A stretch of DNA of 64,000 bases, taken from NCBI GenBank assembly GCA_965249745.1, contig OZ252252.1:4965659-5029658 (forward strand), given 5' to 3'. The stretch comes from Deinococcales bacterium. GTDB lineage: Bacteria > Deinococcota > Deinococci > Deinococcales > JAAFIG01. Each line of letters opens with the position of its first letter. The stretch's first letter is position 1. A program made the translations under genes and the position numbers. Positions 1 to 64,000 of this stretch are shown here, one piece after another. The notes under the pieces were generated by a model. That model did no database searches, had not been told where the DNA came from, and saw only the letters and a program-made list of their open reading frames with translations.

Positions 1-744
1 GGGCGTGGCGCTGGCGCTGAGCGTGAGCTGACCGGGCGTCGTGACCGTGGACGGCGCGGCGCTCAGGTTGACAATTAGATTGGCGGGGTTCGGGGCGGTC
101 ACGGTAACGGGCTGTTCGGGACTGTCAGCGAAATTTCCGGCCGCATCAAAGGCGCGTAGCTGATACCGATGTTGCCCCACGTCCGTCAGGTCCAGGGCGC
201 GACTAAAGACATTCTGAGCCGCGTTGACCGATTGCAAGACTGTCTCCCCGTCGCGCAACTCGAGCCGCGTCACAGCGATGTTGTCCTGTGCCGCTCCAGT
301 GAGTTGCAGCGTGGCGGGCGCTTGGAGCTGCGCGGCGTTGACGCTCAGGGTGACGGCGGTCGGGGCTTGGGTGTCGCCGTTACCGCTCGCGCTCACGGTC
401 ACGGTTTCCTCGGGGCTTTCGGCGAAATTCCCGGCGGCATCGGTGGCCCGTGAGCGGTAACGGTGGGAACCAATGTCTTTGGATAGGAACGTCAGCTCGA
501 AGGTCGTCTGCGCGGCATTGACCGATTTCAAGACCGCGCTCCCCTCCAACAACTCGAGGGTCGTGACCCCGGTGTCGTCCTGGGCGGAGGCGGTGAGCTT
601 CAAGGTGGCCGATACGGCAAGCTGGGTGGCGTTCGGGATCAGCCGCACGTCACTGGGCGTTTGGTGGTCGGTGACAACGACACCTGAGCCGTTCCCGCAG
701 GCGATCAGCGCCCCTAACGCCACTCCGATGATCCACGACTTCAC
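1..744 (-). CDS. Lipoprotein with tandem Ig-like repeats (3' end lies outside the window)
   Basis: Own minus-strand translation from GTG at 744-742 (alternative GTG at 753-751): VKSWIIGVALGALIACGNG, with lipobox LIAC. Two ~96-aa repeats are visible: TLKLTASAQDDTGVTTLELLEG...ATDAAGNFAESPEETVTV and TLQLTGAAQDNIAVTRLELRDG...AFDAAGNFADSPEQPVTV. The frame stays open to position 1. It is absent from the ORF track because no stop lies in the window. Confidence 0.7.
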   Translation of the reverse strand, partial: MKSWIIGVALGALIACGNGSGVVVTDHQTPSDVRLIPNATQLAVSATLKLTASAQDDTGVTTLELLEGSAVLKSVNAAQTTFELTFLSKDIGSHRYRSRATDAAGNFAESPEETVTVSASGNGDTQAPTAVTLSVNAAQLQAPATLQLTGAAQDNIAVTRLELRDGETVLQSVNAAQNVFSRALDLTDVGQHRYQLRAFDAAGNFADSPEQPVTVTAPNPANLIVNLSAAPSTVTTPGQLTLSASATP

Positions 745-819
745 GGTCGCCACTATACCCGTGAGCGCCTATCCCTTTCCATGTCAGGGCAGAGGATTTC
801 TTCAAAAAACGAAGCCTGT

Positions 820-2757
820 TTAGCCGACGGCTCCCATCGTCTCGAGGCGCGGCGGTGAGACGGGGAACTGGGGTTCCAGCGGGTAGGCCTGAACCTGTTG
901 ACCGTCGGTCGCCAGACTGTAGGCGGACAGCTCGAGTTCCAGGATGCCCTGTTCCAGACGGCTGTGCAGGTGCAGCATCGCGTTGCGGGGCAACACGAAC
1001 CAGTGCTCGAAGCGTTCCGGGGTCGGCAGCAGCGGACGACCGTGCAGCAGGACCGGATGCTCTATGGAGACGAACCGCAGGGCTTCCGGCGAACCGAAGA
1101 CCCCGACCCCGAGCGGCATGGCGTCCCCGGAGAGGCCAAACCCGAAGATGTTTTCCAGGGCCGCCCGGCCGCTCAAACGCACCAGGGTCGTTTCGTCCAG
1201 GGCTGAAAAGACGATGCCGCTGGCCTCGGCGCTGCCACTCGTGCGGGCCACAGTGATCGTGCCGTGCTCGTGGGAAACCCCCTCGCCGTAGCGCAGGGAT
1301 TCCAGCAGGGCGTGTTCGCGGTTGCTGACCCAATGCGTTTCCAACGGTGGCGCGGGCAGGCTGGGCAGGTCGTAAAAGCTGTCTCGAGTGGCCGGGACTT
1401 GCAATTCCAGGTGCTGCCACTCCAAAAGAATCAGTTGCTGCTCAGGATTCAGGCATTCCAGCAGATGACCCCAGTTGACGCGCTCGGTGGCCAGCATTCG
1501 GTGATACGCCTCCTGGATGGCGTCGCCCTGTTCCAGGAAGTACTGCGCGGCCCGGCCGTGGGTTCTGACGCGTCGCCCAGGTTGCAGTCCCTCGTGCAAC
1601 ACGCGGCGCACTGACTCGTGGCTGAAATGCCAGTTGGTCGTGTACGAGAACCAGCCGCGCCGCTCGAATTCCTCTAAATGCGCCTCCGCCCCGAGCGCCT
1701 GGGCCAGACCCTCAGCGATATTGCCGGGCTGCACGGCCAGCTTTTCCAGTGCGATCCGGGCATCTAGGGACAGGTACCGCATCTCGAGTTGCAGTTTGCT
1801 GAGCGTCTTGGCGGGCGGTGGCCCGAGTTGCCCGAGTTCCAGCGGTTGCGGGTCGCCCGCCTGCAAGCGTTCACGCAGGTGAGCAGGTACGCCTTGACTG
1901 GCGATGTACAACCGCGCCGCGCGGTTGAAACGCTGATTGGCCAGCACGCCCTGGCGGACCTCTTTCCAGGTCAGCGGCGGCAGGCTGAGTTTGACAATGC
2001 GGTCGCTCGGGAGGATTTCCTCTATTTCTAAGAGCAGACGCGGCGTTTCCCCGAAGGCGCTCCTGGAAAACACGATTACCCCGCTGTTGTTCATGACCGC
2101 CTGACGCGCCTCTGGCGAGAACGGCGGCTTGCTGTATTTGAGCGCCAGATCTGGACCACCGAAGCCTTCCACGAACGGCAGGTTCAACTTGCGCGCCAAC
2201 CCTCGAGCGAACGAGGTGCGATCACTGCCCGGCAGACCTTGCAAGATCACCAGCCCCGGCACGCGCACCCGTCGGGCAGCACTACTGAGCAGGTCTTCAC
2301 GGTCACCCTGCTCCTGCTGATTGGGGTTGACCGCCCGTCTGCGCCACTCGAGCCAAGTTTCAAACTGTGGGCTGGCGTTTAGCATTCGTTCCAGTCCCGC
2401 GAGCGGCTCACCGGGAACACGTTCGTTTTCCAAGCGAATCTGGGCGGGTAATCGCAACGGGTTCTGGCCCCTGGGGAACGCGTTGATTTTCAAGCCAGTC
2501 AACATTTTACGCAGGTGATGCAGTTCCACCCGCAGATTCCCGTGGGGGTCATTGTTTTCCCACAAGAGTTCCGCCAACACCTGACGGTCCGCCTGGCCCT
2601 CAAACGCCAGGTAGTACAGGATCGCCAAGCTCTTTTGACGCAAGGAAAGTACGCGGTCCTTGAACTCGAGCCGGGCTGGGCCCCAGACGGGAAGGCGCAA
2701 TGACTTCAGATCGCGTGCCTGATTAGGTTTAGATGTGGTGGTTGATGGGTTTTGCAC
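820..2757 (-). CDS. Transcriptional regulator: N-terminal winged-helix (SARP/OmpR-like) domain plus degenerate P-loop domain
   Basis: 645-aa ORF. The N-terminus LRLPVWGPARLEFKDRVLSLRQKSLAILYYLAFEG...LLWENNDPHGNLRVELHHLRKML resembles SARP/BTAD-type wHTH activators. A Walker-A-like stretch VILQGLPGSDRTSF lacks the canonical lysine. The gene is divergent from the 3144-9414 operon. Confidence 0.6.
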   Translation of the reverse strand: MQNPSTTTSKPNQARDLKSLRLPVWGPARLEFKDRVLSLRQKSLAILYYLAFEGQADRQVLAELLWENNDPHGNLRVELHHLRKMLTGLKINAFPRGQNPLRLPAQIRLENERVPGEPLAGLERMLNASPQFETWLEWRRRAVNPNQQEQGDREDLLSSAARRVRVPGLVILQGLPGSDRTSFARGLARKLNLPFVEGFGGPDLALKYSKPPFSPEARQAVMNNSGVIVFSRSAFGETPRLLLEIEEILPSDRIVKLSLPPLTWKEVRQGVLANQRFNRAARLYIASQGVPAHLRERLQAGDPQPLELGQLGPPPAKTLSKLQLEMRYLSLDARIALEKLAVQPGNIAEGLAQALGAEAHLEEFERRGWFSYTTNWHFSHESVRRVLHEGLQPGRRVRTHGRAAQYFLEQGDAIQEAYHRMLATERVNWGHLLECLNPEQQLILLEWQHLELQVPATRDSFYDLPSLPAPPLETHWVSNREHALLESLRYGEGVSHEHGTITVARTSGSAEASGIVFSALDETTLVRLSGRAALENIFGFGLSGDAMPLGVGVFGSPEALRFVSIEHPVLLHGRPLLPTPERFEHWFVLPRNAMLHLHSRLEQGILELELSAYSLATDGQQVQAYPLEPQFPVSPPRLETMGAVG

Positions 2758-2907
2758 GGACTTCTCCGAGAGCAGGATAAAGGAAGGGTTATGTGGAATT
2801 TCTTACATCAGATCATAGAACCCGAATCCGGAAACGGATGTTCAAACTCAATTCCCCATGTGTGAGACGAAGGGAACCGATGGCTTCACGAGATTCAAAT
2901 GTATACC

Positions 2908-2948
2908 TCATGAATAAGAACGTTAAGCCTTCATGAACTGGTCATGAA
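2908..2948. promoter_or_regulatory. Three TCATGAA repeats in an AT-rich divergent control region (candidate operator)
   Basis: TCATGAA occurs at 2908-2914, 2931-2937 and 2942-2948, with spacings of 23 and 11 bp. Each copy contains the palindrome TCATGA, and the middle copy is TTCATGAA. They lie in the 386-bp low-GC gap between the divergent regulator and the secreted-protein operon. Confidence 0.4.
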
Positions 2949-3143
2949 TTTCTTGAATTCTAGGATTTCATAGGCTCTCATGTCCCGTTCTCCACAGTGA
3001 AAACGGGCTTCACGCCGGTTTTATGGCGCTCTCAGTAACCTCATGTCAGCCGCGAAACGTTGAACGCGTTTCGTGCTAGGTGTCGGTTCCAGAGACGCCT
3101 CTGGACAGTTCAAAGCCCTTTTGTGGAGTTACGGAGGAATGCT

Positions 3144-4064
3144 ATGAAGATTCACATGTTGGCAATCGCTGCGGGTGCAGTACTGATGGGTGCGACCGCC
3201 TTCGCACAAGCCGACCCGACCGTCATCAGCCCGACCACGGGCAGCGGCAAGGACGCCTTCGCCAAGAACACGACGGATAACTCCGCCAGCGTTCAACAGA
3301 CGATCACGCTGAAACTCCCCAAGGCGACCGCGCTCCACTTGGACGTGACCAGCCTGATCTTCGATCTGACCGATCTGGACGGCGCTCAGTGGGCCGCCCG
3401 CGCCGCCTCCGCCAGCCCAGTTGATTTCGGTGGCAAGATGGTCTGCGTCTACGGCTTTAGCGACACCGACGGCATCACCCCGTTGGATGGCAACTTCTAC
3501 AACCAGAAGCAGTACCTGCCGCTCGGCACGAGCTACAGCGCCGCTGGCTGGCCCAACGTCAAGGTCAACGGTAACGGCGTCGTCAACACCTACCCGCCCA
3601 TCCGCATCGGCGCGAACGGCGAGCTGGTCGAAGGCTCCAAGAACTACTTCGTCTGCTACCGCACCTTCAAGCTCCAGAAGTTCAGCAACGGCACGAGCTG
3701 GGACCTGACGGTTTCCCGCGTTGACAACCCCGCCACCAACCCACGCTCCATCAAGAACATTTACATGCAGGACAACCCCTGCGACACCTTCGGCGCTCCG
3801 ACCGGCCTGTACAAGCTCGGCGCTTCCGAAGCCCAGGGTCAGCCGCTGCACTTGGTCCCCCGCAACCTGAACTTCGGACCAACCGGCAGCCGCACCCCAA
3901 CCAACCGTGCCAACTGCGGTTACAAGAGCTGGTTGGATGACCTGATCATCGTGGCGCTGCCAGTGGACGGCGAACTCAACGGCGAGAACACCGCGCAGTT
4001 GCAGTACACGCTGACCACAACCGCCTGGGAACCAGTCGCCGAAGTTGCTTCCGGCAAGAAGTAA
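3144..4064 (+). CDS. Secreted protein of unknown function (first gene of the envelope operon)
   Basis: ATG at 3144 is preceded by GGAGG (3133-3137). Signal peptide MKIHMLAIAAGAVLMGATAFAQA. I recognise no motif. The track's upstream start at 3060 adds a non-signal extension. Confidence 0.75.
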   Translation: MKIHMLAIAAGAVLMGATAFAQADPTVISPTTGSGKDAFAKNTTDNSASVQQTITLKLPKATALHLDVTSLIFDLTDLDGAQWAARAASASPVDFGGKMVCVYGFSDTDGITPLDGNFYNQKQYLPLGTSYSAAGWPNVKVNGNGVVNTYPPIRIGANGELVEGSKNYFVCYRTFKLQKFSNGTSWDLTVSRVDNPATNPRSIKNIYMQDNPCDTFGAPTGLYKLGASEAQGQPLHLVPRNLNFGPTGSRTPTNRANCGYKSWLDDLIIVALPVDGELNGENTAQLQYTLTTTAWEPVAEVASGKK

Positions 4065-4072
4065 GCCCTTCA

Positions 4073-4101
4073 GGGGACTCGAGGGTTCTCCTCGAGTCCC
4101 C
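4073..4101 (+). terminator. Rho-independent terminator hairpin built from two CTCGAG copies
   Basis: GGGGACTCGAGG (4073-4084), loop GTTCT, then CCTCGAGTCCCC (4090-4101), a perfect 12-bp stem followed by the T-rich run TTCTCTTT. It starts 9 nt after the stop at 4064. Confidence 0.8.
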
Positions 4102-4163
4102 TTCTCTTTAGCTATGATTCATAAAAGAATTTATAAAACATTGGAATTACAAATTTGCTCTAC

Positions 4164-5001
4164 GATGAAGGTCACCATGAACAAAATTCTCAAACTCTTA
4201 ATAGGCACGATGCTAGCTGGAGCCGGACTCTTCGGTTCAGGCGCGCTGGCACAAACCACCCTCGGCGTGGAACCGCCTGTAGCTCTACACGATGGTGTTC
4301 CGGGGCAGATCATCACGCTCAACATCAAGGTCGGTAACCCCAGTCCCAAACCAGTCCGCGTCCGTGTCAGCTTGGGCGACTGGAATTACACGCAGCTTGG
4401 TGAGTTGCAGTACTTCCCAACTGGAAAATTGGCGCAAAGTGCCTCCACTTGGGCTAAAGTTTCCGATTCAGTGCTCGAGGTGGCCGGGAAGGATGTTGGC
4501 ACGGTTCGCTACACGATCACCGTCCCGAAAGACGCGACACCGGGCAGTCACTGGGGCATGATCTTTTTCACCGGAGAGGCGGATAACACCGCGCCCGGCG
4601 GTGTCAACACCTCGATGAGCCTGCGAGTCGCGCACACCTTTTACGTCAACGTTCCACCGACGAAAGCGAGCGGTAAGATCACCGGCATTTTCGGCAAGCC
4701 CGGTCAGAACCCGAGTAAGAATTTCGCCTTCGCAGTGCAGTACCTGAACACCGGTAACATCGCGCAGATTTTAGAGGGACGTATCGAAGTCCGTGACCGC
4801 AGCGGCACGGTCGTCACGGCCGCCGCCTTCCGCAAACAAGTGGTGCTGCCCGCCGCGACTCGAGTCATGCAATCCACGCTGAACGGACCGCTCCCAGCCG
4901 GGGATTACACGGCGCTCATTATCTTAAACTACGGCGATAAGAACCGCGATGTCGCGGGCGAGTACAACTTCACCCTCAAGGTTCCGCTCGAGGAACCCTG
5001 A
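4164..5001 (+). CDS. Secreted Ig-fold protein, possibly chaperone-like (PapD-like or DUF916-like resemblance is weak)
   Basis: Signal peptide MKVTMNKILKLLIGTMLAGAGLFGSGALAQ (alternative ATG at 4176). The beta-rich pattern PGQIITLNIKVGNPSPKPVRVRVSLGDW...VGTVRYTITVPKDATPGSHWGMIFF is typical of Ig-like surface or periplasmic modules. Confidence 0.6.
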
Positions 5002-5069
5002 GCGCAGTTCAAACGAACTGTGAACACGAACCCCTCGAGCAGTTCAAAACGCTCGAGAAGGAGGCTGCT

Positions 5070-5570
5070 GTGCGACGAACTCTGGTGATGGTACTGCTCT
5101 TGATTTGCACCGCCAGCGCCCAGTCCACCTGGTCGCGCCAACTGTTGTTCCAGGGAACGACGGGTCTGATCGAGGCCCGCACCCCGACCAACAGCGTGCT
5201 GTTCACGTTTGAAAAGGATTACCCTCCGGCCCAGTTCCCGGCGCGTTACCCGGCGACCACGCCGACGGACGGCATCCTGCCGTTTCAGATGCACGCAACC
5301 GTGGGCGGCGTCTGGAATCTGCTGCTGGAAATCGCGGACTTGCGCGACGGTAGCGGCCGTCTGCTGGTTCCCGCCCGGCAAATCATGGTGCGCGTCAACA
5401 ACGGCCCGTGGCTGCGCGGCAACGGTGCGCCACAAATTATTTTTACCAGGAACGGCAGCACGCGGGACTGGGAAAATTTGAAGATTGAGTTCGCCATAGA
5501 ACTGCTTGGAAACGAAGTCGCTGGTATGTACGCCGTGCAAACCTATTTCAGCGCCCTCGTGCAACCCTGA
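5070..5570 (+). CDS. Small secreted protein, possible fibre or pilin-like subunit
   Basis: GTG start preceded by GAAGGAGG. Signal peptide MRRTLVMVLLLICTASAQ. The C-terminal beta-strand motif AGMYAVQTYFSAL resembles fimbrial-subunit C-termini; this is a weak call. Confidence 0.55.
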   Translation: MRRTLVMVLLLICTASAQSTWSRQLLFQGTTGLIEARTPTNSVLFTFEKDYPPAQFPARYPATTPTDGILPFQMHATVGGVWNLLLEIADLRDGSGRLLVPARQIMVRVNNGPWLRGNGAPQIIFTRNGSTRDWENLKIEFAIELLGNEVAGMYAVQTYFSALVQP

Positions 5571-5571
5571 C

Positions 5572-8500
5572 ATGTTGCTGCTCGCGCCAGTTCTGGTCTG
5601 GCTGGCGGCGACGCTCGGCAGTATCGGCCTTCCAAACACCGTCTATCAGGCGGCCAACGACCTGAAGATTGAGTCTCCAACTCAGCAATCCGCCAAGCCC
5701 GGCGATTACGTGACGCTGGGCTTCAATGTCTCCGGCACGGGAACGTACACCTTTCAACTCGAGGCTCCCGAGGGCTGGGAGCCGCTCTCTAACAACAAGT
5801 CGCTAACGCTAGACGGGCCGCGCAGCGTGGCGTTCTCATTGCGAGTTCCCCTGGAGGCATTGGCGGATCAGACGGCCGTGTTCACCTTGAAAGCCGTGCA
5901 GGGAGAACGAGTCGTCGCCTCTATCACCGGCAGCATCCGCGTGCTGGCGGTTGGCGGAGTTCGGATGCGGGCCCCGGACGAAGTACGCACCCGGCCGGGC
6001 GACGCGGCCCAATTTGAACTGTTCGTGACCAACACCGGGAACCGTGCCGACACCTTCCGGCTGTCGCCGCAACGCTCCATCTGGCGCGTCAACCTCGAGC
6101 CGCAAGCCTTCGCGCTGAATGTCGGCGAGACGCGTACCGTCAAGGTCACGCTGGTTCCGCAAGGGCAGATTTCCAGCGGGTACATTTACGTCCTGCGCCT
6201 GCGTGGAGAGTCCAGCCTATCGTCTGATGCCGTGAGTGAGATTCAAGTGCTGTTCCGATTCGGGAAGAACGGCAGTGAGCGTAGCAGCACCACGGAACTC
6301 GAGACCGAACTGAATGTTAGGTTCAGTGTTACCCCCAGCGTCACGCTGCCGCCGTATGAGGCACCCGTGTTTGGTCTCAACATCGGAGTCTCGCCGGGGT
6401 TGAGCGGGCAACTCTCGGATTTCGTGACCGGCACGCTGGATACCTCCGGCTCAGGTTTCGGCTTGGATTTGCAGTCTGGCTTCAGCTTGCCGAGCGGCTT
6501 CAATCTAGGCTTGCGGTCGGTCAACTGGGACGCGGCGCTGCGTTTCTCCGGGAATGACACGGAGCTGAGCATCAGTTACGCCTGGAAGGACTGGCTGCTG
6601 GGCGGCAGCGTTGGGTACAGTCAAGCCAGCGGCGCTCAACGCCTGCGGTTCGGTTCGACGCTGACGAGTCTGCGCGACGAATTGAACCTTCAGCTCTACG
6701 CTAGCTTCAGCGGCACCTCGGGCGCGACCGTCGGCGGTGATGGGCGTTCCGATAGCATCGGGGTCACCTACGGCTTGCCACTCAGCCAAGGGCTTTCGCT
6801 GTCGCTGGGAACTGACCTGACGGGCAGCACCACCGCCGGGAGTCCATACACCATTGGCTTGTCGCTGAACGAGTCCTTGCGCTGGCAAACCGAGGCGCTG
6901 GAAGTCTTTCAGTCGTACTCTGGGGTTCCATTCAGCGGGCAGCACGGCCTGAGCCTGTTCGCGGGCTTACGCAACACCGCTCCGTTCGGCTTGCGCGGCG
7001 GCTCGTCGCTGAGTTTCACGCTGGGCGACCCGGTGCAGTTCACGTGGCGCAACACGGTGATCGCCAACGCCTCGGTTCTCTCCGGTCTGAATTTTTTCGT
7101 CACCGGCAGCTACGGCATCGTGACCAGTCCCAGTTACCTGATTGACTGGTCGGTCGGGGCGCTCGGGAGTTACAACTTCCTAATTCCCGGCATTCTCTTC
7201 GGCGGTCTGAACGCGGCTTACACGCACACCGGGGTGATCGTCGGCAACGCCCCTGAACGCGACAGCCTGACCCTTGGCGGGCAGATCAGCAGTGGGAACT
7301 TCAGTGCCGGAGTCAACGCCGGATTCGCCGTCAGCAGCGCCACTGGCAATACCGCTCGAGTCGAAACCACGACCGCCAGCACGCAACTCAGCTACCTGTT
7401 CTCGAGCGCGACTGGCTTGTACGGGCAGTACGATTACAAGCTCGAGGTGGCCGATACCGCGCGTGAGCAGCACAGTCTGACCTTCGGCTGGGCCCAGGTC
7501 TGGAGCGCTAGCCTGTCCACCACGGTGGCGTACACCAGAACCTTGACCGCTGATTTCGTCAATCCGAACCAGCAGGGCGACGCGCTGGGCGTGGGCGTTC
7601 TGGTGCAAGACCTGTTCACCGAGGGGCTGAGCCTGTCGTTCGGCTGGCAGTGGTCGGCCGCGAACGGGTCCATCTTCGACGGCTCGGTCGCCAGTCAGCA
7701 CCGTTTCAGCCTGTCACTGGGCTTCACCGTCAACTTGCCGTTCGTGACGCCCGCTCCGATCACCGAGATCTTCGGTGGTCGTCGCAGTGGCGAAATTAGG
7801 GGGGTCGCGTACCTGGATACGAATCTGAACGGCAAGCGCGACCCTGACGAACCCGCGCTGAAAAACGTGACCTTGCGCCTAGGACGCAACGTGACCGCCA
7901 CGACCGATGCCAACGGCAATTACAGCTTGCGCGCCCCCGTCGGACAGTACAGCTTTGACTTCCCGAGCGGTCTCGAGGCGGGCCTGGATCTGATCGGCGA
8001 GCGCACCGTCAACATTGTCCTGAACCAGACCGAGACCCGCGACCTGGCCTTCGCGCCGGTGACCAGCCTCGAGGTCAGCCTGTTCGACGATGCGAACAAC
8101 AACGGCAAGCGCGATGCCAATGAGATCGGGATCGCCTACGGCGGCGTGCGCTTGGAGGGCCCGATCTCCAAGCAGGTCCGGGTGGACGGAGACGGCAACG
8201 CCACGGTCAGCGGCCTGGTCAGCGGGTTGTACACTGTCGTCCCCGATCCGCGCCAACTCCCGGAGGGGTACCGTTCCACGACCGCACCCGTGGAGGTGAC
8301 GGTGAAAACCCCAGACGCGCCAGCCCCGGTCACGGTCGGCGCGGCACTGCCGCCACGGATTCAAGAAACGACCTTCGAGGCGGGCAACCTGTCCGTGTTC
8401 GCCAACGCTGAGGACACCACGCTGCCCGCCGGGGGCGATCTCAAACTCGAGGCGTTGACGCAGGGCAAGGTGGACCGGGTGACGGCGAAACTCGGTGACC

Positions 8501-8955: not shown

Positions 8956-8973
8956 ACGCAGCAAGGAGGCCGT

Positions 8974-54722: not shown

Positions 54723-54785
54723 CTCTGAAGTCTAGCCAAAAAAGGGACGCGAGCGATTCGCGTCCCCACTCGAGCGGCCGAGTAA

Positions 54786-55490: not shown

Positions 55491-55740
55491 AGGTGTACCT
55501 CCGTTTATTTCTGGGTGCGTCCTCGAGTGTACTCGCTTTTCGTAAGCCCGGCGTCAGTTGGCGGTTCTAGATCACCAAAACCATAAAAACACGTTTGGCA
55601 CGACACTCAATTAGGCTCGAGGATTTTGGGATGGTCCCATTTCCTGCTGAGGGACGCCTGATGCGCTGATTCTTCTAAAGGGGCCGGAAAGTTTGATCGT
55701 TAGACCCAGCGACAGGGTTGGTTGCCGTCAGATTCGTGGC

Positions 55741-58314
55741 TCAGGGCGTTTTCCGCCACCAGCGCCCCCAAACCGATCTAACCATGTTCCGAATTGAGTT
55801 CATGGTCGGCTCGAGCTGACCGAGTTCGCCCCTCAGGCTCAGACGCATTTCTTTCGATAGGTCCTGATCGGGTAAACCCAGCAGCTCGCGGTAAATCGTG
55901 ATTCGCTGTTGGAGCTGATCGGCTCGGTGATTACTGCGGGCCAGACCAATTTTGGCCTTGACGCATTCCGCTCGAATCCCAGAATCGGTTTCGGCCGCGC
56001 AAGCCGCCAATAGTTTTTCGTACGCCTCGACCGCCTCGGCGTGGCGTCCCAGAGTGCGCAGTTTCGCGCCGACGTTCACCAGTGCCTGCGCCGCTTGCAG
56101 GCGCACGACGGCGACTTCATCCCCCAGGCAACGACGGATGAGGTCTTGGTACACGGCGAATCCCGCCTCGGTATCACCGACTGCTTCGCTCATCAAGGTG
56201 AGCGCCTTGGCGTACAGCGCTTTGGCCACGCGTTCGCGCATGTACGCCAGATTGCTGGAACCGTAGCGACGCAGGATTTCTTCGTAGGTCTCAAGCTCCT
56301 CCGAGTGACGCCCCAACTTCTCCAACTGCCAGGCCTTGTTGGACAGCGCCAAGGCCACGTCCTTCTGAATGCTGGTACTCAGCTCCGCCCCGTAGGTGGC
56401 AATCTGGGTCTCGAGGACAGCTAGAGCCGCTTGGCGCTGAGCGAGTTGCGACAGCGAGTAGGCCTTGCGGACCAGGGCATCGCTGCACTGGCGGCGCAGT
56501 TCAGGGTGCAGCGATTGCCCGTACTGGGTCAGCACCTCGTCGTACAGCGTAACGGCCTCGCGGTGCTTGCCTTCGACACCCAGCACCCGGCCCCGTTCAA
56601 TCGTAGCCGTAATCGCATCCCGCTCGGTCAGGGGCAGGTCTTGGTACTGCGAGCCGTAGTGAACCTCTTTGCCAGCCCGTTGCAAACGATTCAGGCAGGT
56701 CAGGCGGCTGGCGGCACCTTTGGCGAGCGTTTCGCGCATCGCCGGGCTGGTGGCGTTTTGAAACCGCGCCATCAGCGAGTCATATACGCTCAAGGCCTCC
56801 TGTTCACGGTTCAAGAGCATCATCAGCAAATACCCTAGGTTCAGGTAGACGCTGGCGGTCGTACCCGTCTCCACGCCCTCGTCCTCGGCGAACGCGTCCA
56901 AATATGTCTGGTAGGTCTGCACCGCGTCCTCGAGATGGCGACGCTCGCGCTGGTCCACCCCGAGGTTGTACAGCGCCTGCGAGACGATTCTACGGATGGC
57001 AGCCTCGGGATCGGCTGCAAAGCGCTGACTTAAATCGCGTACCACGCGGGCGTGTTGAAGTTCAGCCTCGGTCAGCGGCTGCTCAGCCAGGTCACCGCTG
57101 TCGTCCGTGCTTTGCAGTTTGGGGGGTAGCTGTTGCTTCCAGATCTTGGCTTGCGTGTCCCCCGCCTCCGCAGCGGCACGGCGCTGATCGGCGCGACTGA
57201 CATCCGCCACCTCTGACTGGGTTTGCAGCACCTCGAGCGCGTCCCGCCAGCGACCCAGGTCACGCAGCACCCGCACCCGAAGTTGGCGACTGAGGATCAC
57301 CTGCCATTGCACCTCCGGGTCGGACGATCCTGCGAAACGGGTTTGCAACGCAGTCAGCCGCCCCAGAACATCATCCAGCCCCTCGGTGACCAGTAACGCT
57401 CGAGCCTGTCGTAGGTAGGTGTCAGCCAGCAAGCCCTGTAACGCGGGTGCCTGACTGCCACCAAACTGAGCCAGCAGGCGCTCAAAGAGGAGCCGTTCGG
57501 CAGACGGAGCCAGACCCTGGGTGCGCTCGAGCTGCGTTTTCAAGACCTTCGCCTGCACGTGGCTGTCTGGGTGAGAGGCGTAGCGCTCCCACTGAAGCGC
57601 GGCCAGCGCGCTAGCTTGGGTCTGGGAAGCCTGACTGCCCTCCCAGGCGAGCGCCTCGAGCTGGACACCGATAGACAGGTTGACGTTGAACAGCACCGTG
57701 GCATCGCTCAGGCTGCCGTACCGGTCCAGCATCGCCTGGCAGGTCGAGATCAACCGTTCAAAGGCGCTCGGCGTCTCCGACTTCGAGGAAAGGCTGTCTT
57801 GCGGCAATAGCTCTTCCGATGGGCTGTGAGGTTCCGTTTCAAGCTCCGAGAATTGCCAGCCCACCAGCACCGCCCCGGCTCTGGACTGAATGCGGCGCAG
57901 CTCGAGGGTCTCCCCTAAAAATCGGTGGTCTGATAACGCCTCGAGTTTCGATATTCCCTCCAATCGCCGCCGCCTTTGAGCCAGCAGTACCGCTGCCAGG
58001 AGTTGCGCCTCGGCTCCCACCGCGTTCAAATCCGCGTCACTGCCAAGGCTGCACTCCGCCTGCAACTGTTCGTAGATCGTCAGGGCCGCCTCAGATTGCT
58101 CGAGACCGACCAGTGCCTGAGCGTGAACCAATCGCGCTCGCGCCACCAGAATTTGGTCGAATGGGTCTGCGTTGCCAGCGAACCGCGCCCGCAACGACAC
58201 GGCCGCCTCGAGTGCGGCTGGCCACTGCCGGGTCGTCAACAGGGCTTGGCAGTGCTGATACAGCGATTCGAGAGTGTGACTGTTATTCGTATCCGAACGC
58301 GATTTCTCGGTCAT
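55741..58314 (-). CDS. Large TPR-repeat protein
   Basis: About 857 aa of degenerate Ala/Leu-rich TPR-like helical repeats. I prefer the ATG at 58314 over the track start at 58359. Confidence 0.65.
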   Translation of the reverse strand: MTEKSRSDTNNSHTLESLYQHCQALLTTRQWPAALEAAVSLRARFAGNADPFDQILVARARLVHAQALVGLEQSEAALTIYEQLQAECSLGSDADLNAVGAEAQLLAAVLLAQRRRRLEGISKLEALSDHRFLGETLELRRIQSRAGAVLVGWQFSELETEPHSPSEELLPQDSLSSKSETPSAFERLISTCQAMLDRYGSLSDATVLFNVNLSIGVQLEALAWEGSQASQTQASALAALQWERYASHPDSHVQAKVLKTQLERTQGLAPSAERLLFERLLAQFGGSQAPALQGLLADTYLRQARALLVTEGLDDVLGRLTALQTRFAGSSDPEVQWQVILSRQLRVRVLRDLGRWRDALEVLQTQSEVADVSRADQRRAAAEAGDTQAKIWKQQLPPKLQSTDDSGDLAEQPLTEAELQHARVVRDLSQRFAADPEAAIRRIVSQALYNLGVDQRERRHLEDAVQTYQTYLDAFAEDEGVETGTTASVYLNLGYLLMMLLNREQEALSVYDSLMARFQNATSPAMRETLAKGAASRLTCLNRLQRAGKEVHYGSQYQDLPLTERDAITATIERGRVLGVEGKHREAVTLYDEVLTQYGQSLHPELRRQCSDALVRKAYSLSQLAQRQAALAVLETQIATYGAELSTSIQKDVALALSNKAWQLEKLGRHSEELETYEEILRRYGSSNLAYMRERVAKALYAKALTLMSEAVGDTEAGFAVYQDLIRRCLGDEVAVVRLQAAQALVNVGAKLRTLGRHAEAVEAYEKLLAACAAETDSGIRAECVKAKIGLARSNHRADQLQQRITIYRELLGLPDQDLSKEMRLSLRGELGQLEPTMNSIRNMVRSVWGRWWRKTP

Positions 58315-58573
58315 GTCGTTTTTCCCGCCCTCACCATACCTTCGAGCCTCCAGAACCATCCAAGCCTAGAACCATCCAAGCTGGGTGGCGAATGTCAGAT
58401 GCCTCGAGGAAGCCCGAAACCCCAGATGGTAGACTTTGCGCGGTAGAGTCAACGTTGGTGTGGTTACCGCAACCCGGAGTGCCGCGCACGTCGAAATTCT
58501 GAATTTGTGGCACTGGCGCTGACCCGTTCAGCTCGAGTCCAGGGATTTGAGGTTCGACTGGGAGAAAGCAAAT

Positions 58574-60367
58574 ATGTCATCCAATCTGAGAAATTTTTCG
58601 ATCATCGCCCACGTGGATCACGGGAAGTCCACGCTGGCGGATCGAATCCTGGAAATTTGTGGGGCTATGACGGCTAGGGACAAGCGCGAGCAGACGCTGG
58701 ACACGCTGGATTTGGAGCGCGAGCGCGGCATCACCATTAAGGCCACGCCGGTGCGCCTGGATTACGTGGCTCAGGACGGGAAGCCCTACGTCTTCAACCT
58801 GATTGACACGCCGGGTCACGTGGATTTCAATTACGAGGTTTCCAAGTCGCTGGCCGCCTGCGAGGGCGTGCTGCTGTTGGTGGATGCCTCGCAGGGCGTG
58901 GAGGCGCAAACGATTGTCAACGCGTACCTGGCCGTGGACAGCAACCTAACGATCATCCCGGTGGTGAATAAAATTGACCTCCCGAGCGCTATGCCGGAGG
59001 AATCCGCCCAGGAGTTGGAGAGCGTCATCGGCATCCCCGCCGAGGATGCCCTGTACGCCAGCGGCAAGACCGGGCTGGGCGTCGCGGAAATTCTCGAGGC
59101 GATTGTCAGTCGCATCCCGGAACCGAAGAACGACACCGCCGCGCCGATCAAGGCGCTGGTCTTCGATAGCGTGTTCGATAGCTATCAGGGCGTGATTCCG
59201 TTCGTGCGCGTGCTCGAGGGGACGATCAAACCGGGCACGAAGATTCGTTTCTGGAACACGGACAAGGAATTCGTCGTGGACGGCGTGGGCTACTTCCGCC
59301 CGAAGTTAGAGAAGGCAGAGGAGTTGAACGCTGGCGAGGTCGGCTGGGTCACGGCCGCGATCAAGGACATTCACGATGCCCAAGTCGGTGACACGATCAC
59401 GGGGGCGCAACGCCCGACCTTGGAACCATTTCCGGGCTTCAAACCGGCGCAACCGGTCGTATTCAGCGGCTTGTACCCGACCGAGACGAACGATTACCCG
59501 AAGCTCCGCGAGGCCCTGGAAAAGTTGCAACTCAACGATGCCGCGCTGAATTTTGAACCGGAGACTTCTGAGGCGCTCGGCTTTGGCTTTCGTTGTGGCT
59601 TCCTGGGATTGCTGCACGCCGAGGTCGTCCAGGAGCGATTGGAGCGGGAATTTGACCTGGATCTGATCGCCACCGCCCCGAGCGTGGTTTACAAGGTCAA
59701 CCGGACCAACGGCGAGAGTTACATGCTGCAAAACCCGTCGGAACTCCCGAGCATGGACCGCGTGGCGAGCGTCGAGGAACCGTACATCAAATTGTCGGTG
59801 ATTCTGCCCGAAGAGTACGTCGGCAGCGCCATGCAGCTCTTGGTGGAAAAACGCGGTCAGATGAAGGATATGGTCTACGTCGGGCGGCGCGTCGAGCTGC
59901 GCTACGAAGTGCCATTCGGTGAGGTGCTGTACGATTTTCACGACCGCCTGAAGTCGTTGTCACGCGGCTACGCCAGCATGGATTACGAGCAGATCGGCTA
60001 CCGCGAGGACGATCTGGTGAAGGTCAGCATCTTAGTCAACAACGAGATCGTGGACGCGCTGGCGCTCGTCTGTCACCGCACCAAAGCGGATTACCTGGGG
60101 CGGCGAATCGTGGAACGCATGGCGGACGTGATCCCGCGCCAGATGTTCCCCGTACCGATCCAGGCGGCCATCGGCGGCAAGATCATTGCCCGCGCGACCG
60201 TCAAGGCGTACCGCAAGGATGTCCTAGCGAAGTGTTACGGCGGCGATATCAGTCGCAAGCGCAAGCTCTTGGACAAGCAGAAGAAGGGCAAGAAGCGCAT
60301 GAAGGCGATTGGCACGGTCGAAGTGCCGCAGGAAGCGTTCCTGGCAGTCCTCTCCGGCGACAGCTAA
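58574..60367 (+). CDS. lepA: Translation elongation factor 4 (LepA)
   Basis: [31 protein letters not shown] and the LepA C-terminal region are present. Confidence 0.97.
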
Positions 60368-60384
60368 ACCAAGGAAACTGGCCC

Positions 60385-60421
60385 TGCAAATACCCTCGGG
60401 ACAATCTCGAGGGTATTTGCA
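60385..60421 (+). terminator. lepA terminator hairpin
   Basis: TGCAAATACCCTCG (60385-60398) and CGAGGGTATTTGCA (60408-60421) form a perfect 14-bp stem with a 9-nt loop. No strong T-tract follows. Confidence 0.6.
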
Positions 60422-60497
60422 AGGCTGGTCATTTGGTACACCAAAAACCTCACAACAGATTTATCCTCGAGTTCAGAAAAGGCTCGAGGAGGCTGTC

Positions 60498-61457
60498 ATG
60501 AAAAGAGGCTTGGTTTTCGGACTGATACTGCTGAGCGCTGTGTTGCTGGCGTCGTTCTCGCAGGGTCAGACGGGTCGCAAGTACCGCATTATGGTCCCTT
60601 GCACCCCCGGTTGCAGTTGGGAGGTCATGGCGCAGCAAATGGCGCGGATCATGAAGGACGAGGGGCTGGCTGATAGCGTCGAGGTCTACTCCGTGACCGG
60701 GAACGGCATCCCGGCGGCACTGCAAAAGTTCACCGAGCAAAAAGGCAACCCGAACGAGCTGATGGCCTTCGGGGTCGGCGTGCTGGGCGCGACCGTGCTG
60801 GCGAACTCGCCGGTTCAGATGAGCGCTTTCACGCCCGTTGCCCGGATGGTGGCGGAGTACGAGACGGTCTTCGTGGCGAGCGACAGCCCGTACCTGACCC
60901 TGAACGATTTGGTGAAAGCCTGGCGCGCCAATCCGCAAAGCATCGCCTGGGGCGGAACCAGTAAGGGCAGCACCGCGCACATGGTGGCGGGACTGCTGGC
61001 CAAAGCGGCCGGGATAGAGCCGAACAAAGTTAAGTTCATTCCCTCGAACGGCAACTTGCAGGGGGCTAGAGCAATGGTCAATCACGAACTCGAGGCGATC
61101 AGCGCCAGTTACGCCGCCGTAGAGGACTTGGTGACTTCCAATCAGATTCGTCCGCTCGGGATTTCCGCCCCGAAACGCGTGGTCGGGCTGGGCATTCCGA
61201 CCTTCACCGAGCAAGGCTATAAGGTGCAGTTCCAGAACTGGCGCGGGGTCGTCGCGCCGCCCGGTATCACTGAGCGTCAACGCGCTCAGTGGCAAGTCCT
61301 GATGAGCCGCCTGAGCCGTGACCCGATCTGGAAATCCAATGCCGAGGCCAACAACTGGCTGCCGTACTTCCAGACCGGCAACAGCTTTCAGAGCTTCCTC
61401 GAGGACCAGCAGGGCGCCGTGACGACGCTGCTGCAATCGCTGGGCCTACTCAAGTAA
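60498..61457 (+). CDS. Tripartite tricarboxylate transporter substrate-binding protein (TctC/Bug family), orphan
   Basis: Signal MKRGLVFGLILLSAVLLASFSQG with Bug-like length and pattern. No tctA or tctB is adjacent. Confidence 0.6.
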   Translation: MKRGLVFGLILLSAVLLASFSQGQTGRKYRIMVPCTPGCSWEVMAQQMARIMKDEGLADSVEVYSVTGNGIPAALQKFTEQKGNPNELMAFGVGVLGATVLANSPVQMSAFTPVARMVAEYETVFVASDSPYLTLNDLVKAWRANPQSIAWGGTSKGSTAHMVAGLLAKAAGIEPNKVKFIPSNGNLQGARAMVNHELEAISASYAAVEDLVTSNQIRPLGISAPKRVVGLGIPTFTEQGYKVQFQNWRGVVAPPGITERQRAQWQVLMSRLSRDPIWKSNAEANNWLPYFQTGNSFQSFLEDQQGAVTTLLQSLGLLK

Positions 61458-61482
61458 ACCGCGATCAACTTCAAAGAACGCG

Positions 61483-61517
61483 CGGCTCGAGCGAATTTCT
61501 AAACTGCTCGAGCCGCA
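61483..61517. terminator. Bidirectional terminator built from two CTCGAG copies
   Basis: GCGGCTCGAGC (61483-61493) and GCTCGAGCCGC (61507-61517) form a perfect 11-bp stem with a 13-nt loop, between convergent genes. Confidence 0.7.
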
Positions 61518-61547
61518 GCCTTTATCAGTCAATCTTGTTCCTGTCGT

Positions 61548-63761
61548 TTACGGGTTTTTCGTTTTCCACTGTTGCAGCAGTTGCAGCAGGGCTTGTGGAG
61601 GGTTGCTCGGGGCTAGGTTTCCAGCCTGATCCTTGTCGGACAACCCGTGGCACGAGCCGCAAACGCGCACCTCGCCGGGTTGAAAGGTCAACCAGTACCG
61701 CTCACGCACGACACCCGCGCCGACCGGGTCGGTGAGCTGCCAGGTCATGGCGCGGCGGGCGGGCACGAAGGCCGCCATCGAACCGTCCTTGGCGACCGCC
61801 ACGCTGCCCGCCGGGCCGCCCGAGTTCGCCGGGTTGCTCCCGAGGGCCATAGGGTCGTGCAGCACCTGTGAGAGCACGCGCCGACCGGCTCGAGGGTCGG
61901 CTGTACCGCCCAGTCCGCGAAGCTGGTCCGCCTGAAAGAATTGCAGGTGCGCCACATCGTAAACCTTGCCCGGAGCGCCGACGGTCTTGACGCCGCCCGG
62001 AACCTGCAAGTTGAAGGGTTGCTGCTTGTCCAGATCGTCCCGCGTGGTGACGTTGCGCGCCACCGCCAGCGCTAGGTTGTTCTGCACCAGCCAGGCGCGC
62101 AACCCGCTCACGTCCACGCCCGCCTGTTGGAACATCTGCCGCTCTGGAGCCTCGAGCGTCACGGTGCGCTTCGTGGGACGGGAACGGGCCCTGACCTCAA
62201 CCGGGTTCAGCTCCCAGAGCGGACCGTCAAATTCCACTTTTTTATCGGGGTCCCAGTAGCTGAGCTTCTTCGTCAGTCCGCTCGTCAGATTTTTATCTGC
62301 GACCCAGTATGTGCCGGATAATTTTAGAGTCTTCAGCCGGAAATCGTAATTCCCGCCGTACTGTCCGCCCGTGGCGTGCGTTTCAACCGTGTGCGCTGCA
62401 ATCAGCGATCCGTCCGCGAGCGGCAGCGGGTCGCGGTAATGCCCGGAGTGGTTCGGGCTGGGCGTCTTGCCCTCTTCGGTGTACCCAGCCGTATCGCGGT
62501 GCGTCAGATACGTGACCTTCACACCGTCGGGACTCATTGAGGGCGGAGCCTCGAGACTGACGATCTGCCCCGAGGCGTGCGTGTAAAACTCTGGGGCATC
62601 CACCGCGAAGTAGCGCCCGGCTTTGGTCGGGTCCTCGCGGATTTGCAACATGTTCGTGATCTCGTTGGGATTGGTGCGCGGGTACTGCCTGTAATACTCC
62701 ACCAGATTCGGGTCGTCGTTGAAGCTCTGAGACATGTACCCCGCCAGCTCGTGCCGCCCGAGATGATTCAGTACCTCGCCCTCAGAGCCGTCCTCCAGGA
62801 TCGTCCACGGAAAGAACTGATTGAAGGTGTGGCGGTTCAGGTTCGTACCCGTCAGTTGTTTCTCGTCTCGAGGTTCGGGGAAAACCTCATCGCGGTTGCT
62901 CAGCTTCTGGGCGTCTGCCGCTTCGGAGGCGTAATTGAAGGTTCCGTAACTCCCGCCGCCCCGGTCGGCATCGGCTTGCTGGTCGCGTTGCAGGTGATCC
63001 CACTGGGTGAAGATGATCCGCCCGAAACTGTCGAGGCTGGGCGTGAAATTCCCGGACGGCGCGTGATTCAAGAGTTTCAGATTGCCGGTGGCAGGTTCCA
63101 AACTCCACAAGCCCGTCACGGTCGGAGCTTCCTCGTACTCGTCCAGTTGCGGGTAGAGGTGAGGCTCACCGCCCCTTGGACGATCGGTGGTGAAGATCAG
63201 GCGGTCGTCGCTGCCGTAGATCGGGGAAACGTTGTTGAACGCGAGCGGTTGATTCGGGACTTTCGTGATCTGCGGCGTTTCGTTCTTGCCGAGTCCAGTG
63301 ATCTCATAGAGCTGCCAGCGGTACTCCTGGTACTCGTACTGCTTTTCCGGCGCGCCGACGACCATGCTGAACACGGCTTTCTTCCCGTCCCAGTACACGC
63401 TCGGGTCTCGCACCGCGATCGCGTTGGCGTTCTGAAAGCCGTCCACGCCAAACCCAGCGGTTTTCGTCAGGTTCTTCAACCCTCCGTCCGGGTAGCGAAC
63501 CCACAGGTCGCCACCTCGAGCCACAGATTGCAGGTCGCCGCGTTGATTCCCAAACACCGAGCCAATCGTTGTGAAATCCCCAGGCACTGGAACCTGGGTC
63601 ACGAACAGGATCGGATTTGATGACGAGGGCGTTCCGCCCGCGCCTGGCCCTGTGCCCGGCCCAGAGGAGTCCTGGGCCGTACAAGCCACGGCCGCCACGG
63701 TCAAAATCAGCCCAAGGGTTTTCACTACACTTCCGAACACTGCCACTCTTCGAGGGATCAT
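61548..63761 (-). CDS. Secreted protein (likely beta-propeller-rich) with a single C-terminal CxxCH motif
   Basis: The N-terminal signal or lipoprotein-like stretch is VFGSVVKTLGLILTVAAVAC. The body of the 737-aa protein is rich in W/Y/G/D. The C-terminus reads VRVCGSCHGLSDKDQAGN. Confidence 0.7.
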   Translation of the reverse strand: MIPRRVAVFGSVVKTLGLILTVAAVACTAQDSSGPGTGPGAGGTPSSSNPILFVTQVPVPGDFTTIGSVFGNQRGDLQSVARGGDLWVRYPDGGLKNLTKTAGFGVDGFQNANAIAVRDPSVYWDGKKAVFSMVVGAPEKQYEYQEYRWQLYEITGLGKNETPQITKVPNQPLAFNNVSPIYGSDDRLIFTTDRPRGGEPHLYPQLDEYEEAPTVTGLWSLEPATGNLKLLNHAPSGNFTPSLDSFGRIIFTQWDHLQRDQQADADRGGGSYGTFNYASEAADAQKLSNRDEVFPEPRDEKQLTGTNLNRHTFNQFFPWTILEDGSEGEVLNHLGRHELAGYMSQSFNDDPNLVEYYRQYPRTNPNEITNMLQIREDPTKAGRYFAVDAPEFYTHASGQIVSLEAPPSMSPDGVKVTYLTHRDTAGYTEEGKTPSPNHSGHYRDPLPLADGSLIAAHTVETHATGGQYGGNYDFRLKTLKLSGTYWVADKNLTSGLTKKLSYWDPDKKVEFDGPLWELNPVEVRARSRPTKRTVTLEAPERQMFQQAGVDVSGLRAWLVQNNLALAVARNVTTRDDLDKQQPFNLQVPGGVKTVGAPGKVYDVAHLQFFQADQLRGLGGTADPRAGRRVLSQVLHDPMALGSNPANSGGPAGSVAVAKDGSMAAFVPARRAMTWQLTDPVGAGVVRERYWLTFQPGEVRVCGSCHGLSDKDQAGNLAPSNPPQALLQLLQQWKTKNP

Positions 63762-64000
63762 GCCCTCAGCCTGGGAAGTCGCATGGACTCGAGTCTATAT
63801 GTTTCTTCACGTTGGAGTCCCAGGGTTGCGAATCGCGTCATTCTGCCCGATTTGGACTGGGACCGCACTCGAGAACCGGTTCCCACCAGAATCGCCTTGG
63901 CTCTGCGGTCGCCCGAACTCTGGAAGCTTGCTCTGGAACTCTCTGCTTTACAACCGCTGCCCTTGCCCGTCCAGGCTTTCTCAGGTACACTTCTAAAGGC

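Follow-up and report, generated by a model that had tools for sequence, protein, structure and literature searches.

The palindrome CTCGAG occurs exactly 242 times, or 3.8 times per kb, in a 64,000-bp stretch of the genome of a Deinococcales bacterium (GenBank assembly GCA_965249745.1, contig OZ252252.1, positions 4,965,659 to 5,029,658; hereafter "the window", meaning this whole stretch), which is a surplus of about 12-fold over chance. We show here that CTCGAG is a bare six-base highly iterated palindrome (HIP) and a genome-wide signature, as opposed to a gene, a repeat element, or an effect of codon usage; that it is held at an even density of about one site per 250 bp; and that its excess is, as in other HIPs, a lineage-wide trait, in this case of a group of heat-loving bacteria, the Thermaceae and allied uncultured Deinococcota. 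From the methylation recorded in cultured relatives, we infer that CTCGAG is also in this organism the target of a solitary N6-adenine methyltransferase. With slightly more than even confidence, we favor the interpretation that CTCGAG is a HIP-like methylation-site element kept at regular density under a genome-wide positive pressure, be it selection or a recombination-coupled drive.

Abundance of CTCGAG and of Its Neighboring Words

In the window, whose G+C content is 58.8%, base composition predicts 20.3 copies of CTCGAG, dinucleotide-preserving shuffles (n = 100) gave 23.8 ± 4.9 with a maximum of 35, none of the 100 reaching the observed 242, and Markov models of order 2 and 3 predict 22.5 and 52 copies, respectively. 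A Markov model of maximal order already takes up the inflated counts of CTCGA and TCGAG, and it still places CTCGAG at the top of all 4,096 hexamers (z = +10.2). It is also the most frequent hexamer of the window, the second reaching 109 copies, and its eighteen one-mismatch neighbors are present in 2 to 34 copies each. The first-pass annotation of this DNA had estimated about 240 sites and an excess of about ten-fold and had described other TCGA-containing hexamers as far rarer, and both statements are borne out by the counts. HIPs are characterized by an excess of at least about ten-fold, and here it amounts to 242 copies against 20–24 expected, and to 17–35-fold in related loci from metagenome-assembled genomes (MAGs).

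Among the one-mismatch neighbors, an excess is confined to TTCGAG and CTCGAA and amounts to about two-fold (1.2–2.3-fold), while the other outer-position variants stand at 0.4–0.9 times the expectation, all of these on small counts. The variants containing CTAG are strongly depleted, and apart from these and from TTCGAG and CTCGAA, the observed/expected ratios of the neighbors are 0.4–1.2. The excess of TTCGAG and CTCGAA agrees with a decay of the outer base from C to T. The T/A deamination variants CTTGAG and CTCAAG are present at 0.7–1.3 times the expectation, and therefore do not show the depletion that very-short-patch repair would leave.

Many other 6-bp palindromes are nearly absent from the same DNA: CAGCTG, CTGCAG, GAGCTC, GTCGAC, and TCGCGA have no copy at all, and GGCGCC, GCCGGC, CCCGGG, GGATCC, GTGCAC, and GACGTC have one copy each, where about 20–41 of each are expected. 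This indicates classical restriction-site avoidance in the remaining sequence and a long history of many restriction systems. While these palindromes are at 0–1 copies, CTCGAG is 12-fold over-represented, which implies that there is no active cognate restriction; the under-representation seen in the host for the target of a restriction-modification system is not found for CTCGAG. The words GAGCCC and GGGCTC are likewise missing from the window.

Reading Frames, Codons, and Spacers

In the 52 genes that were called from open reading frame (ORF) length and from the G+C content of third codon positions lie 79% of the CTCGAG sites, with 118 of the 242 read as CTC-GAG, 40 as xCT-CGA-Gxx, and 33 as xxC-TCG-AGx, besides 51 that are intergenic or lie across a gene boundary. 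One explanation would be that the surplus is a by-product of base composition, of codon bias, or of a proteome rich in Leu-Glu, as about half of the sites (118/242) are read as CTC-GAG and both CTC and GAG are common codons. However, in the native (core) genes, comprising 52.9 kb, 187 sites are found, whereas within-gene shuffling of synonymous codons, which keeps the proteins and the codon usage, gives 37 ± 5, and only 20 ± 4 are left when the order of the codons is shuffled. Each of the three frames is enriched, with 116, 40, and 31 sites observed against 31, 1.8, and 4.4 expected for CTC-GAG, CT-CGA-G, and C-TCG-AG, respectively; the 22-fold excess of the second frame requires the rare arginine codon CGA, and 40 of the 136 CGA codons are in this context. 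The statement of the first-pass annotation that the excess is not merely Leu-Glu codon usage is thus confirmed, and so are its two examples of different frames in the tilS-tadA ORF (Table 1).

Protein sequences are also marked by CTCGAG. Leu-Glu dipeptides are doubled, with 235 against 116 expected and 132 of the reverse Glu-Leu, and 116 of them are spelled CTC-GAG where 30 are expected, while CTG-GAG, the spelling expected to be the commonest, is used only 13 times.

The strongest enrichment is outside the genes, where the first-pass annotation had already called the hexamer common: the spacers (6,376 bp, 52.7% G+C) contain 51 sites against 1.7 expected, which is about 30-fold, with typically two sites per spacer, and they are followed by the rare-CGA frame, the TCG frame, and finally the Leu-Glu codons. 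The density is highest in the spacers between convergent genes (12.5 per kb, against 6.6 per kb between divergent genes), and therefore these sites are not promoter elements. In addition, the excess holds in relatives across 45–70% GC, while high-GC actinobacterial DNA stays at 0.8-fold (Streptomyces plasmid SAP1) to 1.3-fold (Nocardia farcinica plasmid pNF1), so that GC-rich codon usage is not the cause. The by-product explanation, to which we leave next to no probability, is already refuted by the synonymous shuffling and by the survey of related loci. The occurrence in all frames and in non-coding DNA, beyond codon usage and with no larger repeat unit, is that of a HIP.

Absence of a Larger Repeat Unit

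Alternatively, the sites might be copies of a dispersed repeat, such as a repetitive extragenic palindrome or a miniature inverted-repeat transposable element, or they might be terminator hairpins. Each of the 242 sites is unique when taken with 5 bp of flank on both sides, the flanks hold less than 0.13 bit of information per position, extension of the palindrome past the six bases is no commoner than by chance, and no repeat family was found around the CTCGAG sites of the window. Accordingly, the first-pass annotation was right in seeing no extended consensus, and the conserved sequence or structure around a core that defines such elements is lacking here. Its remark that CTCGAG forms terminator stems is only weakly true: three close pairs of sites, two of them in convergent spacers, do lie within longer inverted repeats (Table 1), and these are the points in favor of the dispersed-repeat explanation, but none of the 13 terminator-like hairpins predicted in 20 kb contains the hexamer, and most sites are intragenic. 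The analyses of flanks, repeat families, palindrome extension, and hairpins have already refuted this explanation, and its probability is negligible. The two pairs located in convergent spacers are in inverted repeats of 10–12 bp and resemble the terminators formed by inverted pairs of uptake sequences in Haemophilus and Neisseria.

Distribution across Lineages, Phages, and Viral Contigs

Related genomes were surveyed in 80 loci orthologous to the oligoendopeptidase F (PepF) gene of the window, taken from species representatives of GTDB; the PepF of the window is 71–76% identical to proteins of uncultured "Deinococcales" MAGs and 62–67% identical to those of Meiothermus and other Thermaceae. 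Leaving aside a MAG of the Trueperaceae (2-fold), all ten Deinococcota loci are enriched in CTCGAG, by 4.3–35-fold at 45–67% G+C, with, for instance, 134 sites in 17.3 kb (L012) and 65 sites in 7.1 kb (L014). The other 70 loci, from Chloroflexota, Armatimonadota, Bipolaricaulota, other phyla, and the Trueperaceae MAG, are mostly at 0–1.5-fold with a maximum of 3.3-fold, and CTCGAG is the top-ranked palindrome in only one of them, a 3-kb Chloroflexaceae locus with three sites. The enrichment is 2.7-fold in plasmid pTT27 of Thermus thermophilus HB8, 3.7-fold in pMESIL01 of Allomeiothermus silvanus, 4.4-fold in M. luteus, 5.7-fold in the chromosome of M. taiwanensis, and 7.8-fold in pOCEPR01 of Oceanithermus profundus, while Deinococcus radiodurans MP1 and D. 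deserti P3 are at 0.47- and 0.43-fold, respectively. In sum, every locus sampled from the Thermaceae and the allied uncultured Deinococcota is enriched, by 2.7–35-fold over 45–70% GC. The first-pass annotation had named two outcomes that would have contradicted it, a loss of the excess after correction for codons and dinucleotides and its confinement to the window, and neither of them occurred, given that the excess survives the correction and recurs across the Thermaceae and the allied MAG loci.

The same data bear on the possibility that restriction systems of the TaqI family purge TCGA from these genomes and that CTCGAG survives under the protection of a resident CTCGAG methyltransferase. 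In favor of it, 45 of the 49 TCGA tetramers of pTT27 (L081, 1-50000) and 28 of the 31 of M. luteus (L005) are inside CTCGAG, so that TCGA is purged in both except within CTCGAG, and a TaqI-type avoidance spares exactly this context. Moreover, M.TaqI-type methylases are widespread in Thermus, and N6-methyladenine (m6A) in TCGA blocks TaqI. A search with M.TaqI, whose sequence was verified against the PDB, gave at least 120 matches; all those listed were TaqI-type, and none of them lies on the 5.08-Mb contig of this genome. The Thermus lytic phage P23-45 (L085, 1-50000) also has only 29 TCGA against 188 expected, although in this phage CTCGAG is not spared (6 against 15 expected, 0.4-fold). However, such a purge accounts for the loss of the other TCGA contexts and not for a 12–35-fold surplus of CTCGAG or for the doubling of Leu-Glu; in the window, where 59% of the TCGA tetramers are part of CTCGAG, those outside it are only mildly reduced (171 against about 216 expected), and in the O. 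profundus plasmid TCGA is enriched as a whole. We therefore regard this survival under protection as quite improbable. As side observations, phage P23-45 carries its own DNA methyltransferase gene (P23p14), and the O. profundus plasmid pOCEPR01 (L084, 1-50000) is conjugative and has TCGA overall at 3.6 times the expectation, opposite to the TCGA purge of Thermus.

Several viral contigs of IMG/VR with 64–70% GC (L151, L201, L182, L200, L188, L117, L192, L134, and others) also contain CTCGAG at 3.4–6.8 per kb (10–20-fold), in all frames and above the synonymous-shuffle expectation. These contigs gave no nucleotide match to known phages, and their protein matches point to actinophages: the terminase and the portal of L134 are closest to those of Thermobifida and Streptomyces phages, and the amidase of L200 resembles lysin A of Mycobacteriales phages. 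The Thermobifida phage P318, like the actinobacterial plasmids pNF1 and SAP1, is not enriched in CTCGAG, and a portal search for the viral hosts gave one partial match labeled Caldimonas sp. and essentially no other informative name. These contigs suggest that the phenomenon may also exist outside the Deinococcota.

Methylation of CTCGAG in Relatives

The single-molecule real-time sequencing data of Blow et al. 2016 (PMC4752239, S3 Table) list active Type II m6A methyltransferases that act on CTCGAG (cTcgAg), with no nuclease partner listed. These are M.Mru1279II (Mrub_2385) of Meiothermus ruber, M.Mch9957IV of M. chliarophilus, and M.Mhy14884I (Marky_0034, annotated as Eco57I-type) of Marinithermus hydrothermalis, with CTCGm6AG found at 99.5%, 94.1%, and 94.6% of the sites, respectively (PMC4752239). 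The CTCGAG methylation of three Thermaceae is therefore already on record, in that supplementary table only, and the text of the same paper takes up an orphan CTCGAG methylase for Nocardia alone, in which the motif is clustered at the origin. A search of the literature, subscription journals excepted, gave no report of an excess of CTCGAG in Deinococcota. The parallel with the cyanobacterial HIP1 and the link to a methyltransferase, both proposed in the first-pass annotation, are thus backed for the relatives, namely, M. ruber, M. chliarophilus, and Marinithermus (PMC4752239).

A phmmer search for the methyltransferase among the ORFs of the window and of all the loci retrieved had a single, weak hit, in a Bipolaricaulota MAG locus (L015), and none in the loci from Deinococcota.

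Spacing of the Sites and the Low-GC Island

Over the whole window, the gaps between the sites look Poisson-like (coefficient of variation 1.0), and this appearance is due to a site-poor island. This island (Table 1) has 4 sites where about 21 are expected at the native density, has a GC content of 38%, is apparently foreign DNA, and provides an internal control: being nearly free of CTCGAG, it indicates that the excess is a property of long-resident DNA. Its gene cluster encodes a C5 DNA methylase, an HD-CE protein, an ORC/Cdc6-like ATPase, and a protein that matches the PADLOC "CARF6" model (E = 4e-80). The island looks like a horizontally acquired, methylase-linked defense cassette of uncommon composition, with no tRNA nearby. 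Its C5 methylase was considered as the cause of the excess and rejected, as it lies in recently acquired low-GC DNA and is a 5-methylcytosine (m5C) enzyme closest to M.HaeIII.

In the native DNA from 18.1 to 64 kb, in contrast to the Poisson look of the whole, the variance/mean ratios of the counts are 0.74, 0.63, and 0.48 in bins of 250, 500, and 1000 bp (lower-tail p = 0.004 to 0.001). The value at 1 kb (p = 0.0013) is lower than that of every other 4-, 5-, or 6-mer of similar frequency, with a median of 1.1 and a minimum of 0.65 among the 4- and 5-mer controls. Pooling 837 gaps from ten enriched segments of the window and of related genomes, only 28 are shorter than 0.1 times the local mean, against 80 expected, and 28 are longer than three times the mean, against 42 expected, while the weakly enriched replicons (Thermus pTT27 and the A. 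silvanus plasmid) have a Poisson-like spacing. Because close neighbors are avoided and long empty stretches are rare, the density of CTCGAG appears to be regulated; from hard-rod statistics, we estimate an effective exclusion of about 50–75 bp between sites.

Such an exclusion resembles a protein footprint, and CTCGAG could be the binding site of an abundant dimeric DNA-binding protein, a nucleoid-associated or global factor acting independently of methylation, given also that a palindrome suits a dimer and that Xu et al. (PMC5861425) favored a nucleoid role for HIP1. Nevertheless, a protein of this kind is not known, six base pairs with uninformative flanks make a short target for a specific binder, the spacers that contain promoters are not enriched in sites, and the exact match to the methylation motif demonstrated in relatives would have to be a coincidence. 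For these reasons, we consider a binding protein improbable.

Turnover of Individual Sites

How the sites are gained and lost was followed in a PepF codon alignment of eleven Deinococcota, that is, in one gene with saturated synonymous divergence; PepF and one other gene are all that the window and the loci of its relatives have in common for a synteny check of site gain and loss. The alignment contains 47 CTCGAG site columns, 25 of them singletons specific to one lineage. In columns with a conserved Leu-Glu, most lineages use the CTCGAG spelling, and several sites were gained through amino-acid replacement, e.g., from Thr-Tyr to Leu-Glu in L012 and L014. PepF has 9–13 Leu-Glu in Deinococcota, compared with about 5.5 on average in other groups. 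For Leu-Glu shared by distant lineage pairs in PepF, the probability that the second lineage has CTCGAG is 0.63 if the first has it and 0.61 if the first does not. The columns are thus filled independently, each lineage filling the available positions separately, and particular sites are not conserved. At the other end of divergence, two M. taiwanensis contigs that are 99.87% identical show zero differences in CTCGAG sites.

This turnover is what would be expected from a neutral drive, in which a very-short-patch-type correction linked to the methyltransferase, or a biased gene conversion, makes CTCGAG from near-cognate words and the sites are functionless. These bacteria are polyploid and recombination-proficient, which counts in favor of such a drive. 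Also in its favor, the sites arise separately per lineage with no positional conservation, the excess is largest where constraint is least, and foreign DNA and a lytic phage lack it. A repair system of this kind was proposed for HIPs by Elhai 2015 (PMC4390886), with one-base variants biased to the outer positions, and here too the only over-represented neighbors are the outer-position TTCGAG and CTCGAA. In contrast, a local conversion predicts Poisson or clustered spacing, and the observed sites are under-dispersed, with few very short and few very long gaps; the one-off neighbors as a whole show no depletion, with no specific lack of the deamination products and even an excess of TTCGAG. Moreover, the methylation of the relatives is m6A and not m5C, and deamination then gives no reason for short-patch repair. 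Biased repair of a purely local kind is the main rival, fitting the turnover and neither the under-dispersion nor the undepleted neighbors, and we judge it unlikely, if well ahead of the binding protein in plausibility.

A Proposed Methylation-Site Element under Genome-Wide Positive Pressure

The even spacing, the independent filling of positions, and the absence of the excess from foreign DNA and a lytic phage make a genome-wide positive pressure on a methylation-site element the most likely explanation. The first-pass annotation had named several possible roles and had favored none of them. In the mechanism that we suggest, an orphan methyltransferase would methylate CTCGAG genome-wide (CTCGm6AG), and the positive pressure would maintain a regular carpet of methylated marks. 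These marks would be read by DNA-handling machinery, either to recognize self DNA in transformation and recombination or for the marking of strands or of replication. The pressure could be selection or, as has been put forward for HIP1 and DNA-uptake sequences, a molecular drive coupled to recombination, and sites would disappear mainly when the outer base decays from C to T. Methylation of HIP1 makes natural transformation more than 100-fold more efficient (bioRxiv 10.1101/2024.09.10.611283), which suggests something similar for CTCGAG.

Several points weigh against this interpretation. The even spacing could be due to the short-range exclusion of about 50–75 bp and to nothing else, and the selection on each site for a function in "coverage" would be very weak, and yet amino-acid sequences have been changed. 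Thermus thermophilus is reported to take up DNA regardless of its sequence, and this makes the uptake version less likely, at least in Thermus, which also has the weakest CTCGAG excess. There is no N6-adenine methyltransferase gene within the 64-kb window. In Meiothermus (Allomeiothermus) silvanus, CTCGAG methylation was not detected (PMC4752239), though its plasmid is enriched, and this enrichment is either a relic or evidence against a dependence on methylation. Finally, HIP sites have been reported to be conserved in position between genomes (Xu et al. 2018, PMC5861425), and the CTCGAG sites of PepF are not conserved between lineages.

Comparison with Known Systems

The closest known systems are HIP1 (GCGATCGC) and the alternate cyanobacterial HIPs (PMC4390886, PMC5861425), which are, like CTCGAG, GC-rich palindromes, over-represented 10–300-fold. 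HIP1 and CTCGAG share the occurrence in all frames and in spacers beyond codon usage, the lineage-wide distribution, the solitary methyltransferase (for CTCGAG, in the relatives), and a non-random spacing; the bias of variants to the outer positions that is known for HIPs may have a counterpart in the small excess of TTCGAG and CTCGAA. HIP1 differs in being an 8-mer of cyanobacteria, while CTCGAG is a 6-mer of Deinococcota and so not HIP1 proper, and in its m5C methylation, with a Dam-type GATC methylation nested in the motif, against m6A by a methylase annotated as Eco57I-type in the CTCGAG relatives. For the periodicity of 10–90 kb of HIP1, a 64-kb window is too short a basis of comparison.

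The uptake sequences of Pasteurellaceae (uptake signal sequence, USS) and Neisseriaceae (DNA uptake sequence, DUS) resemble CTCGAG in their density of at least about one per kb, their even spacing, their peptide imprint, their genome-wide accumulation in competent and recombining bacteria, and the occasional inverted pairs downstream of convergent genes. CTCGAG has these properties, at 3.8 per kb, with a dispersion of 0.48 and a doubled Leu-Glu, but not the asymmetric core of 9–12 nt and the flank preferences of USS and DUS, which act unmethylated, being instead a bare 6-bp palindrome.

A second kind of parallel comes from marks set by methylation. In Campylobacter jejuni, CtsM provides, through m6A methylation of RAATTY, a methylation-dependent discrimination of self DNA in transformation. 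There, and in the HIP1 case (bioRxiv 10.1101/2024.09.10.611283), a solitary methyltransferase marks a frequent short motif, and the mark, not restriction, sets transformation; RAATTY, however, owes its frequency simply to an AT-rich genome, in contrast to CTCGAG with its active enrichment. The orphan CTCGAG methyltransferase of Nocardiaceae (PMC4752239) has the same recognition sequence, no nuclease partner, and a proposed housekeeping role, but in Nocardia the motif clusters near dnaA with no general excess (1.3-fold in the N. farcinica plasmid), whereas here the excess is genome-wide. Dcm/Vsr very-short-patch repair in E. coli likewise leaves a methylation target (CCWGG) over-represented through repair bias, but with an effect below about two-fold and a depletion of the T-containing deamination products, in contrast to the 12–35-fold excess of CTCGAG, which is without such depletion and linked to m6A.

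As a tentative extension, which we hold to be possible and clearly less probable than the methylation-site element as such, CTCGAG would represent a second, independently evolved system of the HIP type. In it, an orphan adenine methyltransferase and its hexamer would serve as a genome-wide "self" mark in Thermaceae-related Deinococcota, read by uptake, recombination, or repair, and spread by a recombination-coupled drive strong enough to rewrite codons and amino acids.

Features of the Window

The features discussed above are collected in Table 1.

Table 1. Coordinates of CTCGAG-related features in the 64,000-bp window.
Feature	Position	Strand
Native DNA, dense in CTCGAG (50 sites, 3.9 per kb)	1..12828	
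Low-GC (38%) island, 4 CTCGAG sites	12829..18100	
Native DNA, 188 CTCGAG sites (4.1 per kb), more even than random	18101..64000	
Four-gene cluster of the island	13191-14132, 14129-15937, 15930-16976, 16973-18025	all minus
Site pair (4078/4091), 13 bp apart, intragenic; inverted repeat GGGGACTCGAG...CTCGAGTCCCC	4078..4096	
Site pair (22425/22437), 12 bp apart, spacer of convergent genes; inverted repeat GGCAGGCTCGAG...CTCGAGCTGCC, terminator-like	22425..22442	
Site pair (61486/61507), 21 bp apart, convergent spacer; inverted repeat GCGGCTCGAG...CTCGAGCCGC	61486..61512	
Example site read CTC-GAG (Leu-Glu, SANLERL) in the tilS-tadA ORF	11173..11178	+
Example site read xxC-TCG-AGx (Ser-Ser, RETSSED) in the tilS-tadA ORF	11328..11333	+

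Two further observations concern genes of the window. The tilS-tadA fusion seen in the first-pass annotation is indeed a single ORF (11119-12828, plus strand), which joins TilS (PP-loop ATPase and TilS C-terminal domain) to a TadA-like cytidine/adenosine deaminase domain. At its 5' end it overlaps the minus-strand FGGY kinase ORF (9586-11313), which is extended far upstream there; the kinase itself probably starts further in. A glycoside hydrolase family 32 gene is split over two plus-strand ORFs in different frames (32264-32752 and 32760-33731), the first with positions 1-115 of the N-terminal domain and the second with positions 137-307 and the C-terminal domain, and it is either a frameshifted pseudogene or the result of a sequencing error.

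Significance

The question of what hyper-abundant methylated palindromes do is about 30 years old, and nearly all the work on them has been in cyanobacteria. A case independent of these, in another phylum, with another motif, and with m6A instead of m5C, would allow a comparison showing which features are general, namely, the solitary methylase, the even spacing, the imprint on the proteome, and the lack of the excess in foreign DNA and in lytic phage. Thermus and Meiothermus are culturable, naturally transformable, and genetically tractable, and the clade spans a 2.7–35-fold enrichment with one species that has apparently lost the methylation; this tractable clade with its gradient of enrichment makes the models of biased repair, self-DNA recognition, and nucleoid function directly testable. 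On the practical side, the abundance of CTCGAG explains XhoI as a frequent cutter of the DNA of these lineages, or as an enzyme blocked on it, and the CTCGAG signature could flag horizontally acquired DNA and help to bin the metagenomic contigs of these lineages.

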